NCBI RefSeq assembly: GCF_017348835.2
Contig: NZ_CP071375.1
Strand: one strand, 5' to 3'
DNA: 64,000 nucleotides
Source: Escherichia coli
Lineage (GTDB): Bacteria > Pseudomonadota > Gammaproteobacteria > Enterobacterales > Enterobacteriaceae
In this document: in pieces, positions 3,950 to 64,000 of the stretch
Position numbering within the stretch: position 1 is the stretch's first letter
Layout: the number at the start of each line of letters is the position of its first letter
The notes under the pieces: generated by a model
What the model saw: only the letters and a program-made list of their open reading frames with translations
Databases searched by the model: none
Told to the model about the DNA's origin: nothing
Position numbers and translations under genes: made by a program

Positions 3950-5100
3950 GGATAAGTAAGGGGAGATTGCACTATGCAAATGCAGCATCTGATGGTTGGC
4001 TATCCTAAGTACTACCAAACGGCCGATTATGCGTTGAGGCTTTCAGTGATGGCTGATATAGCAACAATGAGAATGAAGGCTCTGCACTTCTGGGATAAAC
4101 ACGGTATTTCTGCAGCTTCTGAAGCCTTTGGCGTGTCCTGCCGCACGCTTTACTGGTGGCGTCAGTTACTGAACAAGGAAGGACCTGAGGGGCTAATCCC
4201 GCACAGTAAGGCACCTCTGGTGCGACGAAAAAAACACTGGCATCCCGATGTGCTGAAAGAGATTCGACGCCTCAGGACAGAGCTGCCGAACCTCGGTAAA
4301 GAGCAGATTTTTGTTCGCCTGAAGCCCTGGTGCGAACAGCGCTATCTGGCCTGTCCGAGTGTTTCCACCATCGGCAGAATGATCGCTGCCGCACATGATA
4401 AAATGCGGATGATACCTGTGCGTCTGGGATCGCGGGGGAAGGCACTGCTTGTCAAAAAGCGGTCTGCCAAACCCCGCAGGCCAAAGCACTACCGCCCGGT
4501 AAAGACAGGTGAGCTCATTGGGATGGACGCCATTGAGCTCAGAATGGGCGAACTGCGTCGCTATGTCATCACCATGATCGACGAATGCAGCAATTACGCG
4601 CTGGCGCTGGCTGTGCCGTCACTCAACAGTGATATCGTCAATCACTTCTTCAGCCGCGCAGCCCGGTTGTTCCCGGTCGGTATCAGCCAGATAATCACAG
4701 ATAACGGAAAAGAGTTCCTGGGAAACTTCGACAAAACGCTGCAGGAAGCCGCTATCAAACACCTCTGGACCTATCCCTACACGCCAAAAATGAACGCTAT
4801 CTGTGAACGTTTTAACCGGACGTTAAGAGAGCAGTTTATTGAATTTAATGAGATTTTACTCTTTGAAGATCTGGCGCTATTTAACCAGAAGCTGGCGGAA
4901 TATCTGGTGCTGTATAACAGCAAAAGACCCCACAAGGCGCTCGCACTAATGACGCCCGTGGAATATATTTTAAAAGAGAATAAAAATTGCAATATGTGGT
5001 GGACCCATACAGTGTGTTGATTTCCAACGAGTAAGAGGCTAACCTTATGGTGTCTATGCATAGAGGGGCCTCACTTTGATTTATAGTCAGGTGGGGCTTT
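3950..5100 (+). mobile_element. Putative IS481-family-like insertion sequence; boundaries not resolved
   Basis: Single-ORF DDE transposase in the place K-12 carries IS150; I could not identify terminal inverted repeats by eye, so the ends are approximate. Confidence 0.3.
3974..5020 (+). CDS. DDE-type transposase/integrase (rve core; IS481-family-like)
   Basis: 348-aa ORF with N-terminal HTH-like segment and integrase core motifs (GMDAIE…ITDNGKEF…YPYTPKMNAICERFNRTLRE); true start may be a downstream Met. Confidence 0.7.
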   Translation: MQMQHLMVGYPKYYQTADYALRLSVMADIATMRMKALHFWDKHGISAASEAFGVSCRTLYWWRQLLNKEGPEGLIPHSKAPLVRRKKHWHPDVLKEIRRLRTELPNLGKEQIFVRLKPWCEQRYLACPSVSTIGRMIAAAHDKMRMIPVRLGSRGKALLVKKRSAKPRRPKHYRPVKTGELIGMDAIELRMGELRRYVITMIDECSNYALALAVPSLNSDIVNHFFSRAARLFPVGISQIITDNGKEFLGNFDKTLQEAAIKHLWTYPYTPKMNAICERFNRTLREQFIEFNEILLFEDLALFNQKLAEYLVLYNSKRPHKALALMTPVEYILKENKNCNMWWTHTVC

Positions 5101-33131: not shown

Positions 33132-34670
33132 TCAGAACAGCCCCAACGGTTTATCTGAGTAGCTCACTAGCAGGCACTTGGTTTGCTGGTAATGCTCCAG
33201 CATCATCTTGTGGGTTTCGCGACCGATGCCTGATTGTTTGTAGCCGCCAAACGCCGCATGTGCCGGGTAAGCGTGATAACAGTTGGTCCACACGCGCCCA
33301 GCCTGTATGCCGCGCCCCATCTTATAGGCCAGATTACCGTTGCGGCTCCAGACGCCCGCGCCCAGGCCATATTGCGTATCGTTCGCCAGCTCCAGCGCTT
33401 CTTCCATCGTTTTGAAGGTGGTCACCGCCAGCACCGGGCCAAAAATCTCCTCCTGGAACACGCGCATATTGTTCTGACCAAACAGAATCGTCGGTTCGAG
33501 GTAGTAGCCGTCTTTCAGTTCACCTTCCAGCAGCTTGCGCCGCCCGCCAGTGAGCACGTCTGCGCCCTCTTTTTTACCGATATCAATGTAGTTGAGGATG
33601 GTTTCCAGTTGCCCGTGAGAAACCTGCGCCCCCATTTGCGTCACGCTGTCGAGTGGGTTACCGCTGCGAATGCTTTCGACACGGCGGATGGCGCGTTCCA
33701 TAAAGCGTTCGTAGATTGACTCCTGCACTAAGGCACGACTCGGACAGGTGCAAACTTCGCCCTGGTTAAAGGCAAACAGTGCAAAGCCTTCCAGCGCTTT
33801 ATCGAAAAAGGCATCTTCTTCATCCATCACATCAGCAAAGAAGATATTTGGCGACTTACCGCCCAGCTCCAGCGTCACCGGAATAATGTTTTGCGTTGCG
33901 TATTGCATAATTTGTTGGCCCACTTCCGTTGAGCCGGTAAACGCCACTTTGGCGATGCGTTTCGAGGTCGCCAGATATTCGCCAATTTCCCCACCAGCGC
34001 CATTGACCACGTTCACCACGCCCGGCGGCAGTAAATCACCGACGATTTCCATTAGCAGCAGTACAGAAAGCGGGGTAAGACGTGCGGGTTTCAGCACCAC
34101 ACAGTTGCCCGCCGCCAGCGCGGGAGCCATTTTCCAGCTCGCCATCAGCAGCGGGAAGTTCCACGGGATAATCTGCCCCACCACGCCTAACGGTTCATGG
34201 AAATGATAGGCCACGGTTTCGCTATCAACTTCACTGATCCCACCTTCCTGCGCCCGAATACACGAGGCGAAATAGCGGAAATGGTCAATCGCCAGCGGTA
34301 CATCCGCAGCACTGGTTTCGCGAATGGGTTTGCCGTTATCCCAGGTTTCAGCTGTCGCTAACAGCTCGAGGTTTTGTTCCATTCGATCGGCAATCTTAAA
34401 CAGAATCGCCGCGCGATCCTGCACCGAGGTGTGCGCCCATTTATCTTTCACTTTGTGCGCAGCATCCAGCGCCAGATCGATGTCTCGTTTGCCCGAAGAC
34501 GCCACTTCGCACAGCAGCTGCCCGGTCACCGGCGTCAGGTTCTGGTAATACTCACCATCGGCAGGGGCTACCCATTCGCCGCCAATAAAGTTGTCGTAGC
34601 GGGCTTTTAACTTGATGGGGAAACCATACTCACCGGGCTTAATCTGTGCTGAAGGGGGATTGTTGGTCAT
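33132..34670 (-). CDS. aldB: Aldehyde dehydrogenase B
   Basis: ORF trimmed to [17 protein letters not shown]… (512 aa); catalytic region present. Confidence 0.95.
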
Positions 34671-41709: not shown

Positions 41710-44700
41710 ATGAGCGGAAAACCGGCGGCGCGTCAGGGCGACATGACGCAGTATGGCGGTAGCATTGTCCAGGGTTCAGCCGGGGTGCGCATCGGTGCCC
41801 CCACCGGCGTGGCCTGTTCGGTGTGCCCCGGCGGGGTGACGTCCGGCCATCCGGTCAATCCGCTGCTCGGTGCAAAGGTCCTTCCCGGTGAAACCGACAT
41901 CGCCCTGCCCGCCCCGCTGCCGTTCATTCTCTCCCGCACCTACAGCAGTTACCGGACAAAAACGCCCGCGCCGGTGGGGAGCCTCGGCCCCGGCTGGAAA
42001 ATGCCTGCGGATATCCGCTTACAGCTGCGCGATAACACACTGATACTCAGTGATAACGGCGGCAGAAGCCTGTATTTTGAGCACCTGTTTCCCGGTGAGG
42101 ACGGTTACAGCCGCAGCGAATCACTGTGGCTGGTGCGCGGCGGCGTGGCGAAACTGGATGAAGGTCACCGGCTGGCCGCACTCTGGCAGGCGCTGCCGGA
42201 AGAACTCCGCTTAAGTCCGCATCGTTATCTGGCGACAAACAGTCCGCAGGGGCCGTGGTGGGTACTCGGCTGGTGTGAGCGGGTGCCGGAAGCGGATGAG
42301 GTGCTGCCTGCGCCGCTGCCGCCGTACCGGGTACTGACCGGGCTGGTGGACCGCTTCGGGCGCACACAGACGTTCCACCGCGAAGCCGCCGGTGAATTCA
42401 GCGGCGAAATCACCTGCGTGACGGATGGTGCCGGGCGTCACTTCCGGCTGGTACTGACCACGCAGGCGCAGCGGGCAGAAGAAGCCCGGCAGCAGGCCAT
42501 TTCCGGCGGGACGGAACCGTCCGCTTTTCCTGATACCCTTCCGGGTTACACCGAATATGGCCGGGACAACGGCATCCGTCTGTCTGCCGTGTGGCTGACG
42601 CACGACCCGGAATACCCGGACAACCTGCCAGCCGCGCCGCTGGTGCGCTATGGCTGGACGCCGCGCGGCGAACTGGCGGCAGTGTATGACCGCAGCAATA
42701 CACAGGTGCGCAGCTTTACTTACGATGATAAATACCGGGGCCGGATGGTGGCGCACCGTCACACGGGCCGACCGGAAATCCGTTACCGTTACGACCGCGA
42801 CGGGCGGGTGACAGAACAGCTAAACCCGGCAGGCTTAAGCTACACGTATCAGTATGAGAAAGACCGCATCACCATCACCGACAGCCTGGACCGCCGTGAA
42901 GTGCTGCACACGCAGGGCGAAGGCGGGCTGAAGCGGGTGGTGAAAAAGGAACACGCGGACGGCAGCGTCACGCAGAGTCAGTTTGACGCCGTGGGCAGGC
43001 TTAAGGCACAGACAGATACGGCAGGCCGGACGACTGAGTACAGCCCGGATGTGGTGACGGGACTCATCACGCGCATCACCACACCGGATGGCAGGGCATC
43101 GGCATTTTACTATAACCACCACAGCCAGTTAACGTCAGCCACCGGGCCTGACGGGCTGGAATTGCGCCGGGAATATGATGAATCCGGCCGTCTGATTCAG
43201 GAAACTGCACACAACGGCGATATCACCCGCTACCGTTATGATAATCCACACAGTGACTTACCCTGCGCAACGGAAGATGCCACCGGCAGCCGGAAAACCA
43301 TGACGTGGAGCCGTTACGGCCAGTTGCTGAGCTTCACCGACTGTTCCGGTTATGTAACCCGTTATGACCATGACCGCTTCGGGCAGATGACGGCGGTGCA
43401 CCGCGAGGAAGGGCTGAGTCAGTACCGCGCATACGACAGCCGTGGACAGTGAATTGCCGTGAAAGACACGCAGGGCCATGAAACGCGGTATGAATACAAC
43501 ATCGCCGGTGACCTGACCGCCGTCATTGCCCCGGACGGCAGCAGAAACAGGACACAGTACGATGCGTGGGGAAAGGCCGTCCGTACCACGCAGGGCGGGC
43601 TGACGCGCAGTATGGAATACGATGCTGCCGGACGGGTCATCCGCCTGACCAGTGAAAACGGCAGCCACACCACCTTCCGTTACGATGTACTCGACCGGCT
43701 GATACAGGAAACCGGCTTTGACGGCCGCACACAGCGTTATCACCACGACCTGACCGGCAAACTTATCCGCAGCGAGGATGAGGGGCTGGTCACCCACTGG
43801 CACTATGACGAAGCAGACCGCCTCACGCACCGCACCGTGAATGGCGAAACCGCAGAGCGGTGGCAGTATGATGAACGCGGCTGGCTGACAGACATCAGCC
43901 ATATCAGCGAAGGGCACCGGGTGACGGTGCATTACGGGTATGATGAGAAAGGCCGGCTGACCGGTGAGCGTCAGACGGTGCATCACCCGCAGACGGAAGC
44001 ACTGCTCTGGCAGCATGAGACCAGACACGCTTACAACGCGCAGGGGCTGGCGAACCGCTGTATACCGGACAGCCTGCCCGCCGTGGAATGGCTGACCTAC
44101 GGCAGCGGCTGGCTGGCAGGCATGAAACTCGGCGACACACCGCTGGTGGAGTACACCCGCGACCGCCTGTACCGGGAAACGCTGCGCAGATTCGGCCGTT
44201 ATGAACTCACCACCGCTTACACCCCTGCCGGGCAGTTACAGAGCCAGCACCTGAACAGCCTGCAGTATGACCGCGATTACACCTGGAACGACAACGGCGA
44301 ACTCATCCGCATCAGCAGCCCGCGCCATACCCGGAGTTACAGCTACAGCGACTCCGGCAGGCTGACCGGCGTTCACACCACGGCAGCGAACCTTGATATC
44401 CGCATCCCGTATGCCACGGACCCGGCAGGTAACCGCCTGCCCGACCCGGAGCTGCACCCGGACAGCACCCTCAGCATGTGGCCGGATAACCGTATCGCCC
44501 GTGACGCGCACTATCTTTACCGGTATGACCGTCACGGCAGACTGACAGAGAAAACCGACCTCATCCCGGAAGGGGTTATCCGCACGGATGATGAGCGCAC
44601 CCACCGGTACCATTACGACAGTCAGCACCGGCTGGTGTACTACACGCGGACACAATATGCAGAGCCGCTGGTCGAAAGCCGCTATCTTTACGACCCGCTG

Positions 44701-45888
44701 GGCCGCAGGGTGGCAAAACGGGTATGGCGACGTGAACGGGACCTGACGGGCTGGATGTCGCTGTCACGGAAACCGGAAGTGACCTGGTACGGCTGGGACG
44801 GCGACCGCCTGACCACAATACAGAACGACAGAACCCGCATCCAGACGATTTATCAGCCGGGGAGCTTCACGCCACTCATCAGGGTTGAAACCGCCACCGG
44901 TGAGCTGGCGAAAACGCAGCGCCGCAGCCTGGCGGATGCGCTTCAGCAGTCCGGCGGCGAAGACGGTGGCAGTGTGGTGTTCCCGCCGGTGCTGGTGCAG
45001 ATGCTCGACCGGCTGGAAAGTGAAATCCTGGCTGACCGGGTGAGTGAGGAAAGCCGCCGCTGGCTGGCATCGTGCGGCCTGACTGTGGAGCAGATGCAAA
45101 ACCAGATGGACCCGGTGTACACGCCGGCGCGAAAAATCCACCTGTACCACTGCGACCATCGCGGCCTGCCGCTGGCGCTTATCAGTGCGGAAGGGGCTAC
45201 AGAATGGTGCGCAGAATACGATGAATGGGGCAACCTGCTGAATGAAGAGAACCCGCATCAGCTGCAGCAGCTTATCCGCCTGCCGGGGCAGCAGTATGAT
45301 GAGGAGTCCGGCCTGTATTACAACCGCCACCGCTATTATGACCCGCTGCAGGGGAGGTATATCACTCAGGATCCGATTGGGCTGAAGGGGGGATGGAATT
45401 TTTATCAGTATCCGTTGAATCCGATAACTGATATTGACCCGTTGGGATTAGCGACCTGTTTATACAGCATAACTTTAAGTATGCTTTCATGCGTTTCAGA
45501 TACGCAAAATGATGATAACTCTTATGATGTGCTTACTATTCCTGTCGCCTCTGGTAATAATGGTAATAATATGCAATGTAAAAATAATCCTGGTTGTACA
45601 CACTTACAAAATAGAGGTCCAATACCTCAAGGGGTATGGAGCTGGAATGTTAATGGTCCTGGAGCAACCAATAGAAAACCTAATGGTATACGTTTAGTAC
45701 CGTCAGCAAATACAGAAACATATAATCGTGATGGATTTTTAACACATAGTTGTTTAAACGCTTTCGGTCCGTCTTTAGGACCTCGATTCTGTTCCGAGGG
45801 TTGTATAACTGGTTCATCTAATGACATGCAAAAATTAAATGAGTTAATATTTTCAGAGCCAGATAGCACATTAACAGTTACGGACTAA
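41710..45888 (+). pseudogene. rhsA: Rhs polymorphic toxin RhsA with YD repeats, divergent C-terminal tip, and an in-frame TGA at 43450..43452
   Basis: ORFs 41710..43452 and 43459..45888 are in the same frame; N-terminus MSGKPAARQGDMTQYGG…, YD-repeat core and PxxxxDPxGL boundary ([11 protein letters not shown]) read directly; the stop replaces a Leu as I recall K-12 RhsA. Confidence 0.75.
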
Positions 45889-45976
45889 AAAATATGGCAA
45901 AGTTATTAACAATTGTATTTTTTTCTCTATTTCTGCGAGTGCAGTTACTGCAAGACAATTTCAGAGAGAGTTAGAT

Positions 45977-57900: not shown

Positions 57901-59778
57901 GTCGGTGACGCCCTGAATGCGCTTGATGATAACGCCCTGCTGTGGGATGAGACTGCCAATGGCGGTGCAGGAGCCTACAATGCCAGCCATGACGGTAAAG
58001 CCAGCATCATCACTAATGTCGCTAATGGCAGTATTAGTGAGGACAGTACCGATGCAGTGAACGGTTCTCAGTTGAATGCGACGAATATGATGATTGAGCA
58101 GAACAGCCAAATCATCAATCAGCTTGCTGGTAATACCGACGCAACCTATATCGAAGAAAATGGCGCTGGTATCAACTACGTTCGTACTAACGACAACGGT
58201 TTAGCCTTTAACGATGCAAGCGCCTCTGGTGTCGGCGCTACAGCTGTAGGTTATAACGCTGTCGCGTCTGGTGCCAGCAGCGTAGCCATTGGTCAGAACA
58301 GCAGCAGCACCGTTGATACCGGTATTGCGCTGGGTAGCAGCTCCGTTTCCAGCCGTGTGATTGCCAAAGGTTCTCGTGATACCAGCGTGTCAGAAGAAGG
58401 TGTTGTGATTGGTTATGACACCACGGATGGCGAACTGCTCGGTGCATTGTCGATTGGTGATGATGGCAAGTACCGCCAAATCATCAACGTAGCCGATGGT
58501 TCCGAAGCCCATGACGCCGTTACGGTTCGTCAGTTGCAGAACGCTATTGGAGCGGTCGCCACTACGCCAACCAAGTACTATCACGCCAACTCAACGGCAG
58601 AAGACTCACTGGCCGTTGGTGAAGACTCGCTGGCAATGGGGGCGAAAACTGTCGTTAATGGTAATGCAGGTATTGGTATCGGTTTGAACACTCTGGTTCT
58701 GGCTGATGCGATCAACGGTATTGCTATCGGCAGTAACGCACGCGCAAACCATGCAAACAGTATTGCAATGGGTAACGGTTCTCAGACCACCCGTGGTGCA
58801 CAGACTGGCTACACCGCCTACAACATGGACGCACCGCAGAACTCTGTAGGTGAGTTTTCTGTTGGTAGTGAAGACGGTCAACGTCAGATCACCAACGTCG
58901 CAGCTGGTTCAGCGGATACCGATGCGGTTAACGTGGGTCAGTTGAAAGTCACTGATGAGCGCGTAACGCAAAATACCCAGAGCATTACTAACCTGAACAA
59001 TCAGGTCACTAATCTGGATACTCGCGTTACTAATATCGAAAACGGTATTGGCGACATCGTAACCACCGGTAGCACCAAGTACTTCAAGACTAACACCGAT
59101 GGCGTAGATGCCAATGCCCAGGGTAAAGATAGCGTTGCTATTGGTTCTGGTTCCATTGCTGCCGCTGACAACAGCGTCGCTCTGGGTACAGGCTCCGTGG
59201 CCAACGAAGAAAACACGATCTCTGTGGGTTCTTCTACCAACCAACGCCGTATCACCAACGTAGCTGCCGGTGTTAATGCCACCGATGCGGTTAACGTGTC
59301 GCAGCTGAAATCTTCTGAAGCAGGCGGCGTGCGCTACGACACCAAAGCTGATGGTTCTATCGACTATAGCAATATCACCCTCGGTGGTGGCAACGGCAGT
59401 ACGACTCGTATCAGCAACGTCTCCGCTGGCGTCAACAACAACGACGCGGTGAACTACGCGCAGTTGAAGCAAAGCGTGCAGGAAACGAAGCAATACACCG
59501 ATCAGCGGATGGTTGAGATGGATAACAAACTGTCTAAAACTGAAAGCAAGTTGAGCGGTGGTATCGCTTCTGCAATGGCAATGACCGGTCTGCCGCAGGC
59601 TTACACTCCAGGTGCCAGCATGGCCTCTATTGGTGGCGGTACTTACAACGGTGAATCGGCTGTTGCTTTAGGTGTATCGATGGTGAGCGCCAATGGTCGT
59701 TGGGTCTACAAATTACAAGGTAGTACCAATAGCCAGGGTGAATACTCCGCCGCACTCGGTGCCGGTATTCAGTGGTAA
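54931..59778 (+). CDS. upaG: Trimeric autotransporter adhesin, UpaG/EhaG/SadA family
   Basis: 1615-aa ORF with extended signal peptide [21 protein letters not shown]…, repetitive head/stalk modules and a C-terminal YadA-like anchor ending …AALGAGIQW. Confidence 0.85.
56379..57150 (+). repeat. In-frame tandem repeats (~255 bp / 85 aa, ~3 copies) inside the adhesin stalk
   Basis: Near-identical DNA blocks, e.g. ACCAACGTTAAAGATGGCGACCTGACGGCTGGCAGCACCGATGCCGTTAA… at 56641 and again at 56896. Confidence 0.8.
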
Positions 59779-59799
59779 TGATCCATTAAGTTAGTGTGA

Positions 59800-59900
59800 C
59801 TAAGGGCAAACGCCAAATTGCCTGATGCGCTACGCTTATCAGGCCTACAGGGTGATTCTGCACATTCCTATAGGCCGGGTAAGGTGTTCACGCCGCATCT
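59800..59900. repeat. REP/BIME units
   Basis: GCCTGATGCGCTACGCTTATCAGGCCTACA and TAGGCCGGGTAAGGTGTTCACGCCGCATCTGGC. Confidence 0.8.
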
Positions 59901-60204
59901 GGCAAGATAAGGCGCTCCGGGTCAACAATCTAAGGGCAATTCTCTGATGAGGATTGCCCTTTTCTTTACCAGACATCTCCCCCCACAAGAATTGGCCCTA
60001 CCAATTCTTCGCTTATCTGACCTCTGGTTCACAATTCCCCAATTAAAACTCACATCAATGTTGCCAATACATAACATTTAGTTAACCATTCATTGTCATT
60101 ATCCCTACACAACACAATTGGCAGTGCCACTTTTACACAACGTGTGACAAGGAGATGAGCAACAGACTCATTACACGATGTGCGTGGACTCCAGGAGACC
60201 TGCA

Positions 60205-61860
60205 ATGAATCTCTGGCAACAAAACTACGATCCCGCCGGGAATATCTGGCTTTCCAGCCTGATAGCATCGCTTCCCATCCTGTTTTTCTTCTTTGCGCTG
60301 ATTAAGCTCAAACTGAAAGGATACGTCGCCGCCTCATGGACGGTGGCAATCGCCCTTGCCGTGGCTTTGCTGTTCTATAAAATGCCGGTCGCTAACGCGC
60401 TGGCCTCGGTGGTTTATGGCTTCTTCTATGGTTTGTGGCCCATCGCGTGGATCATTATTGCAGCAGTGTTCGTCTATAAGATCTCGGTGAAAACCGGGCA
60501 GTTTGACATCATTCGCTCGTCTATTCTTTCGATAACCCCAGACCAGCGCCTGCAAATGCTGATCGTCGGTTTCTGTTTCGGCGCGTTCCTCGAAGGAGCT
60601 GCAGGCTTTGGCGCACCGGTAGCAATTACCGCCGCATTGCTGGTCGGTCTGGGCTTTAAACCACTGTACGCCGCCGGGCTGTGCCTGATTGTTAACACCG
60701 CGCCAGTGGCATTTGGCGCGATGGGCATTCCAATCCTGGTTGCCGGACAGGTAACAGGTATCGACAGCTTTGAGATTGGTCAGATGGTGGGGCGGCAGCT
60801 ACCGTTTATGACCATTATCGTGCTGTTCTGGATCATGGCGATTATGGACGGCTGGCGCGGTATCAAAGAGACGTGGCCTGCGGTCGTGGTTGCGGGCGGC
60901 TCGTTTGCCATCGCTCAGTACCTTAGCTCTAACTTCATTGGGCCGGAGCTGCCGGACATTATCTCTTCGCTGGTATCACTGCTCTGCCTGACGCTGTTCC
61001 TCAAACGCTGGCAGCCAGTGCGCGTATTCCGTTTTGGTGATTTGGGGGCGTCACAGGTTGATATGACGCTGGCCCACACCGGTTACACTGCGGGTCAGGT
61101 GTTACGTGCCTGGACACCGTTCCTGTTCCTGACCGCTACCGTAACACTGTGGAGTATCCCGCCGTTTAAAGCCCTGTTCGCTTCGGGCGGCGCGCTTTAT
61201 GAATGGGTGATCAACATTCCGGTGCCGTATCTCGACAAACTGGTTGCTCGTATGCCGCCGGTCGTCAGCGAAGCTACCGCTTACGCCGCCGTATTTAAGT
61301 TTGACTGGTTCTCTGCCACTGGCACCGCCATTCTGTTTGCTGCGCTGCTCTCGGTTGTCTGGCTGAAGATGAAACCGTCTGACGCTATCAGCACCTTCGG
61401 CAGCACGCTGAAAGAACTGGCTCTGCCCATCTACTCCATCGGTATGGTGCTGGCATTCGCCTTTATTTCGAACTATTCCGGACTGTCATCAACACTGGCG
61501 CTGGCACTGGCGCACACCGGTCATGCATTCACCTTCTTCTCGCCGTTCCTCGGCTGGCTGGGGGTATTCCTGACCGGGTCGGATACCTCATCTAACGCCC
61601 TGTTCGCCGCGCTGCAAGCCACCGCAGCACAACAAATTGGCGTCTCTGATCTGTTGCTGGTTGCCGCCAATACCACCGGTGGCGTCACCGGTAAGATGAT
61701 CTCCCCGCAATCTATCGCTATCGCCTGTGCGGCGGTAGGCCTGGTGGGCAAAGAGTCTGATTTGTTCCGCTTTACTGTCAAACACAGCCTGATCTTCACC
61801 TGTATGGTGGGCGTGATCACCACGCTTCAGGCTTATGTCTTAACGTGGATGATTCCTTAA
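60205..61860 (+). CDS. lldP: L-lactate permease
   Basis: ORF trimmed to [29 protein letters not shown]… (551 aa). Confidence 0.95.
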
Positions 61861-62636: not shown

Positions 62637-63823
62637 TTATTTCCGCAGCCAGCGATTATCGCGCCGCAGCGCAACGCATTCTGCCGCCGTTCCTGTTCCA
62701 CTATATGGATGGGGGTGCATATTCTGAATACACGCTGCGCCGCAACGTGGAAGATTTGTCAGAAGTGGCGCTGCGCCAGCGTATTCTGAAAAACATGTCC
62801 GACTTAAGCCTGGAAACGACGCTGTTTAATGAGAAATTGTCGATGCCGGTGGCGCTAGGTCCGGTAGGTTTGTGTGGCATGTATGCGCGACGCGGCGAAG
62901 TTCAGGCAGCCAAAGCGGCGGACGCGCATGGCATTCCGTTTACTCTCTCGACGGTTTCCGTTTGCCCGATTGAAGAAGTCGCGCCAGCCATCAAGCGCCC
63001 AATGTGGTTCCAGCTTTATGTACTGCGCGATCGCGGCTTTATGCGTAACGCACTGGAGCGAGCAAAAGCAGCGGGTTGTTCGACACTGGTTTTCACCGTG
63101 GATATGCCGACACCGGGCGCACGCTACCGTGATGCGCATTCAGGTATGAGCGGCCCAAATGCGGCAATGCGCCGCTACTTGCAAGCGGTGACACATCCGC
63201 AATGGGCGTGGGATGTGGGCCTGAACGGTCGTCCACATGATTTAGGTAATATCTCAGCTTATCTCGGCAAACCGACCGGACTGGAAGATTACATCGGCTG
63301 GCTGGGGAATAACTTCGATCCGTCCATCTCATGGAAAGACCTTGAGTGGATCCGCGATTTCTGGGATGGCCCGATGGTGATCAAAGGGATCCTCGATCCG
63401 GAAGATGCGCGCGATGCAGTACGTTTTGGTGCTGATGGGATTGTAGTTTCTAACCACGGTGGCCGCCAGCTGGACGGTGTACTCTCTTCCGCTCGTGCGT
63501 TGCCCGCTATTGCAGATGCGGTGAAAGGTGATATAGCCATTCTGGCGGATAGCGGAATTCGTAACGGGCTTGATGTCGTGCGTATGATTGCGCTCGGTGC
63601 CGACACCGTACTGCTGGGTCGTGCTTTCTTGTATGCGCTGGCAACAGCGGGCCAGGCGGGTGTAGCTAACCTGCTAAATCTGATCGAAAAAGAGATGAAA
63701 GTGGCGATGACGCTGACTGGCGCGAAATCGATCAGCGAAATTACGCAAGATTCGCTGGTGCAGGGGTTGGGTAAAGAGTTTCCTGCGGCACTGGCTCCGA
63801 TGGCGAAAGGGAATGCGGCATAG
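62633..63823 (+). CDS. lldD: L-lactate dehydrogenase (FMN-dependent)
   Basis: 396-aa [41 protein letters not shown]…. Confidence 0.97.
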
Positions 63824-63990
63824 TCGTTTGCGCCCCCTCCCCCTAACCCTCTCCCTCAGGGAGAGGGGACCGTTCGGCGCTGAATGTACTCCCTCACTCT
63901 GAAACGACACCGCACTCTTTTTTTCTCCCTCGCCCCTCCGGGGTGAGGGGAAAAGGCCGCACTGCTCACCAATTTTCTGCTATCCTGCCC
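63824..63990. repeat. Palindromic intergenic repeat units (CCCTCTCC…GGAGAGGGG type)
   Basis: CCCTCTCCCTCAGGGAGAGGGG and CCCCTCCGGGGTGAGGGG stem-loops after lldD. Confidence 0.6.
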
Positions 63991-64000
63991 CCGCACTAAG

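Follow-up and report, generated by a model that had tools for sequence, protein, structure and literature searches.

Pseudogenes are a recorded feature of the rhs loci of Escherichia coli, where their state has been listed per locus and by strain, and across the Enterobacteriaceae Rhs pseudogenes and relics, including old orphan fragments, are found degraded by premature stops or frameshifts (Jackson et al. 2009, PMC2935791). In K-12, the clade I Rhs protein RhsA (b3593) is encoded between yibF and yibH, a position that corresponds to locus 10 in the locus table of the same study, and its gene combines a GC-rich core with an AT-rich tip. A different type of toxin is represented by the Tlde1 L,D-transpeptidase-like T6SS effectors such as Salmonella Tlde1a, which stand alone and belong to a family with the motif HXX14-17-(S/T)HGCh (PMC9638812). 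In addition, two complete genomes that are nearly identical to the DNA considered here, PE164 (NZ_CP114128.1; pig, China) and F2_81 (NZ_CP043542.1; pig, Australia), encode an 'RHS element core protein', WP_096220420.1, as one intact CDS of 4179 nt and 1392 residues.

The window, by which we mean the whole 64,000-nucleotide stretch of E. coli DNA that was analysed, contains an rhs gene of 1392 codons that occupies the same chromosomal locus as K-12 rhsA, as indicated by the annotated neighbours in PE164, F2_81 and K-12; in the annotation of PE164 and F2_81 the gene order is selB-selA-yibF-rhs-Imm57-yibH-yibI-mtlA. The window protein matches WP_096220420.1 save at residue 581, and the flanking genes, together with a frameshifted Imm57 gene, are the same; however, whereas WP_096220420.1 is intact, direct reading of the window reveals an in-frame TGA on the + strand at codon 581. 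The features of the locus are as follows.

41710-43449, + strand: N-terminal 580 codons of rhs (from the ORF list, the translation and Pfam on the intact orthologue)
41725-41754, + strand: N-terminal motif AARQGDMTQY
41845-42078, + strand: DUF6531, residues 46-123 (Pfam on the intact orthologue)
43450-43452, + strand: in-frame TGA replacing Leu581 (TTA), the single mismatch of the gene to PE164; T in F2_81 and TTA in K-12
43459-45888, + strand: downstream ORF of 809 codons in the same frame, which encodes the remaining YD shell as well as the RHS core and the toxin tip
45136-45246, + strand: RHS core domain PF03527, residues 1143-1179 (58.4 bits against a cut-off of 27.9)
45436-45450, + strand: DPLGL motif, residues 1243-1247, at the boundary of core and tip; homology to K-12 rhsA ends at 45451
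45451-45888, + strand: C-terminal toxin tip with its frame intact, including a Tlde1-like domain (45571-45837) and an H-X15-S-E-G-C motif (45745-45804)
45895-46414, + strand: Imm57 immunity gene with a 1-nt deletion; its Imm57-domain ORF spans 45977-46414 (Pfam, 163 bits)

An earlier note on this DNA had described a TGA at 43450-43452 that splits rhsA into ORFs of 580 and 809 amino acids, and this description is exact with respect to the sequence, the ORF list and the translation. The upstream ORF (41710-43452) begins with ATG, and the downstream one begins with a GTG at 43459, 6 nt past the TGA. The two were also said to share a frame, which is borne out by the ORF list and by a protein alignment to K-12 RhsA that runs unbroken across the stop; they align continuously with one protein and are therefore not a chance pair of ORFs. 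The derived base is the G at 43451, and the base following the stop is an A, which gives a UGA-A context.

Most features that define the Rhs family are present in the window gene. The protein contains ten YD..G motifs, the first of which lie in the N-terminal 580 codons, and Pfam recognizes 11 stretches of RHS_repeat (PF05593) in the intact orthologue, scoring 220 bits against a cut-off of 22. The core is followed by a DPxGL motif and a variable tip, the GC content drops from 61.7% in the core to 36.8% in the tip and 32.7% in the adjoining immunity gene, and the gene sits at the yibF-yibH position. The core and tip thus share the GC-rich/AT-rich architecture of K-12 rhsA. T6SS and vgrG genes are absent from the 64-kb window. 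A further criterion of the family is a single uninterrupted reading frame, and in the window gene this frame is broken by the TGA at codon 581; for this reason, it is a pseudogene allele of the Rhs family and not a working member.

The placement of the stop in a YD-repeat context by the earlier note is also correct, as Leu581 is the hydrophobic position of a YD..G.L motif; among the ten motifs of the protein this position is L in six, V in two, and A and R in one each. Residue 581 falls inside the shell that aligns to solved Rhs cocoons, namely residues 286-917 for Tse5 (8cp6) and 302-1060 for 7q97. The same note placed a Leu here in K-12, and codon 581 of rhsA is indeed TTA there, in the identical context CGTGGACAGTTAATTGCCGTG, with an identical local protein context of 18 residues. 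An alignment to orthologous rhsA genes, which had been proposed as a check, yields TTA (Leu) in PE164, F2_81 and K-12 alike. At the DNA level, the K-12 rhsA core is 97% identical to the window across the stop and up to the DPLGL motif.

As to what the stop removes, the 580-residue product retains the N-terminal region and roughly 40% of the YD-repeat shell. Approximately 58% of the protein lies past the stop and is lost: the remainder of the shell, the RHS core, the DPLGL cleavage site and the Tlde1-like tip. The parts predicted to be necessary for enclosing, cleaving and carrying the toxin are all missing from this product. The domain anatomy strongly suggests a loss of toxin function in this one strain. 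Translation would end after 580 residues, leaving no deliverable toxin from the rhsA locus, and the stop may also have a polar effect on the immunity gene that follows. Among the stop codons of E. coli UGA is the leakiest, and read-through could yield traces of the full-length protein.

The gene had been named rhsA and its product a large toxin. The locus and the Leu ancestor stand; however, the tip is not that of K-12 RhsA, but a Tlde1-like one with an Imm57 gene next to it. In the intact orthologue, the Tlde1_dom profile (PF10908) matches residues 1288-1376 with 27.4 bits (E = 5e-6), which is below the curated cut-off of 30.1, and the match is graded 'weak' on public copies of the 1392-residue protein. 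The tip motif H1346-X15-S-E-G-C1365-I keeps the His, Ser, Gly, Cys and hydrophobic positions of the family, whereas Glu replaces the second His. By its sub-threshold domain match and this near-family motif the tip may resemble the Tlde1 effectors, although in contrast to the stand-alone Tlde1a type, the putative Tlde1-like domain of the window is fused to an Rhs core. The window tip is 96% identical to a tip that adjoins an intact Imm57 gene, and the signal peptide found on the intact partner immunity proteins fits a periplasmic target.

The immunity gene of the window has lost 1 nt from its signal-peptide region, immediately ahead of a T run at about 45919-45925, where the window and K-12 (yibV) read ATTGTA-TTTTTTT as opposed to ATTGTGCTTTTTTT in an intact allele. 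Intact Imm57 homologues are 173 residues long and start with MARLLTIVLFFSISANAVT. RefSeq calls the gene 'frameshifted' in both PE164 and F2_81, and some public annotations call it from an ATT start (169 aa, MNNCIFF...). The deleted allele is found alongside the intact 1392-residue toxin gene in many assemblies, and also in the orphan module of K-12. The deletion is older than the rhs stop, with the toxin-immunity module probably already compromised when the stop arose.

The history of the locus can be traced further by comparison with K-12, where the only remnant of the Tlde1-like tip of the window is the last orphan module (yibS/yibW/yibV). Positions 45240-47000 of the window are 92.8% identical in DNA to 3768620-3770369 of NC_000913.3 (yibS-yibW-yibV-yibU), and the K-12 RhsA tip, yibA, yibJ and yibG are all missing from the window. 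This loss together with the homology to the orphan module implies that recombination probably joined the main core to a former orphan tip in this lineage, which fits the C-terminal displacement model (PMC2935791). In contrast to the old orphan fragments among the described relics, the window rhs is a main gene that is intact save for one very recent point mutation.

How recent the change may be is illustrated by the nearest genomes. The comparison with PE164 was made base by base over the 64 kb, with the final 800 bases (63202-64000) compared with F2_81 only. The window is separated from PE164 by three SNPs, a 6-bp indel and an IS element; the substitutions are at 870 (C->T), 34632 (G->A) and 43451 (T->G), and single-base indels to PE164 are absent across the 64 kb. 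Within the 12.5 kb around the rhs gene, the sole difference is the T->G at 43451, which converts TTA (Leu581) to TGA. F2_81, aligned over 31201-64000, shares the T of PE164 at 43451 and its G at 34632. The substitution at 34632, in aldB, is synonymous and private relative to PE164 and F2_81, and a further substitution at 63767 in lldD, compared with F2_81 only, is likewise synonymous. Elsewhere in the window, a YadA-like trimeric-autotransporter adhesin gene (approximately 56369-61400) is uninterrupted, as it is in F2_81, whereas in PE164 it is split by an IS3-family element that the window lacks; the 6-bp indel lies in the internal repeats of this gene, which show 87.5% tandem self-similarity around 56629-57134.

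Beyond these two genomes, the TGA allele is without a match in the public data that were searched. By megablast, with every match required to span the site, a 41-mer centred on the TGA has 0 matches in 5,426 complete E. coli genomes, while the corresponding TTA 41-mer occurs in 8,075 places in 3,073 of them. Similarly, the TGA 30-mer was found in 0 metagenome contigs and the TTA 30-mer in at least 120. In a 153-billion-gene index of called genes neither the 580-residue nor the 809-residue product is on record, while the intact 1392-residue product is common (at least 50 blocks). Since the TGA k-mers and split products are unmatched and the TTA forms abundant, the stop is derived and, judging by public data, private to the source of the window.

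The earlier note left two options for the stop, a genuine nonsense mutation and a sequencing or assembly error, and these are still the sole two live explanations. The former is the likely one: a recent nonsense mutation at the rhsA locus, private to the strain or isolate, in which a T->G transversion turned the TTA of Leu581 into TGA, and the decay of rhs that follows may be neutral or weakly selected. The alternative is that the record is wrong at 43451, with the G introduced by sequencing, polishing, consensus building or later handling, and that the organism itself has TTA and an intact Rhs of 1392 residues. We consider this unlikely, although it would account for the fact that the TGA allele is unique to the window among complete genomes, metagenome contigs and the gene index, and that exactly one base separates the window gene from one whose protein is widespread in public assemblies. 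It is nevertheless opposed by the quality of the surrounding record, as finished assemblies seldom contain substitution errors and elsewhere in the 64 kb error-like differences from PE164 are absent. A base-calling error triggered by local context was rejected, as site 43451 has no homopolymer and no Dam, Dcm or EcoKI motif. Contamination of the consensus by a paralogue is unlikely as well, because the rhs segment is single-copy in the closest genomes and a second copy is absent from the window. Moreover, every Leu codon has T at its second position, so neither cross-mapping nor gene conversion from a paralogous Leu codon could have supplied the G.

A second nonsense SNP in the window bears on the same question. 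In ghrB (609-1583, + strand), which encodes glyoxylate/hydroxypyruvate reductase B, Arg88 is changed from CGA to TGA at 870-872. Two TGA nonsense changes among the three SNPs to PE164 have a probability of about 0.002 under uniform random substitution, and this excess, for which there is no explanation beyond coincidence, raised the suspicion of a systematic artefact or planted stops. The ghrB allele is absent from the 5,426 complete RefSeq E. coli genomes, but its 87-residue product can be found, with a 232-residue remainder ORF behind it, in at least eight independent samples, comprising two NCBI assemblies (GCA_032490375.1 and GCA_032490275.1) and six assemblies of SRA runs (SRR31611469, SRR33453116, SRR33453117, SRR27418881, SRR27418558 and ERR14374684), the contigs of which are 100% identical to the window from position 1 to about 3990. 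Because it occurs in these public samples with identical flanks, the ghrB stop is a real lineage marker and the window a natural member of that lineage. The suspicion of a systematic artefact is weakened accordingly, as one private-looking SNP of the window has been confirmed independently. On the other hand, samples with the ghrB allele of the window exist, yet the 580-residue product of rhs is found in no recorded gene call, which is a point in favour of an error at 43451. The draft assemblies of the ghrB-stop lineage break at about 3970-5020, the position of an 'integrase core domain' transposase gene adjoining hokA; F2_81 has an extra IS150 nearby.

A genuine mutation could also be a functional one, in which the full-length protein is produced by UGA read-through or selenocysteine insertion, or a two-piece working cocoon is made by reinitiation at GTG 43459. 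This is highly improbable. Attention was drawn to selenocysteine and programmed recoding by selA and selB, which lie 0.3-3.5 kb upstream, but the adjacency of selA/selB, yibF and rhsA is the normal gene order of K-12. A SECIS stem-loop 3' of the UGA is absent: the SECIS family of Rfam is unmatched in the region at E <= 10, with just a chance-level hammerhead match at E = 9, and the 71 nt from the stop (43450-43520) fold no better than shuffled sequences (z = +0.37). The orthologues have Leu (TTA) at this codon and neither UGA nor Cys, and recoding was rejected on these grounds. Evolution can have produced no adaptation to the stop, given that it is private and that thousands of genomes carry the ancestral codon, an ordinary Leu.

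Reinitiation draws on the GTG at 43459, which is in the same frame and 6 nt after the TGA, and on the parallel with Tc toxins, in which cocoons made of two polypeptides, TcB and TcC, exist. However, the GTG is preceded by a weak Shine-Dalgarno-like sequence only (gccgtggacagtgaattgcc), and a separate C-terminal half would be missing the N-terminal region, which presumably loads Rhs onto the secretion apparatus. That the 580- and 809-residue halves might co-assemble into a two-piece cocoon delivering the Tlde1-like tip is an analogy to which we assign next to no probability; if true, the pair would be a natural split Rhs effector analogous to TcB/TcC. Finally, selection of the toxin stop in response to the broken immunity gene is unsupported, because the same Imm57 deletion coexists with an intact toxin in many assemblies.

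To conclude, read as a genuine recent mutation, the rhs stop is an ordinary private pseudogenising point mutation in a family in which pseudogenes are already well documented, and its weight beyond annotation is small. The locus should be annotated as one rhs pseudogene with an internal stop, instead of as a pair of genes, and counts of strains with a working Rhs-Tlde1 effector should leave this one out. It is another instance of how quickly polymorphic-toxin loci decay and turn over in E. coli, and the rhs TGA, if confirmed, could serve as a very fine-scale lineage marker.
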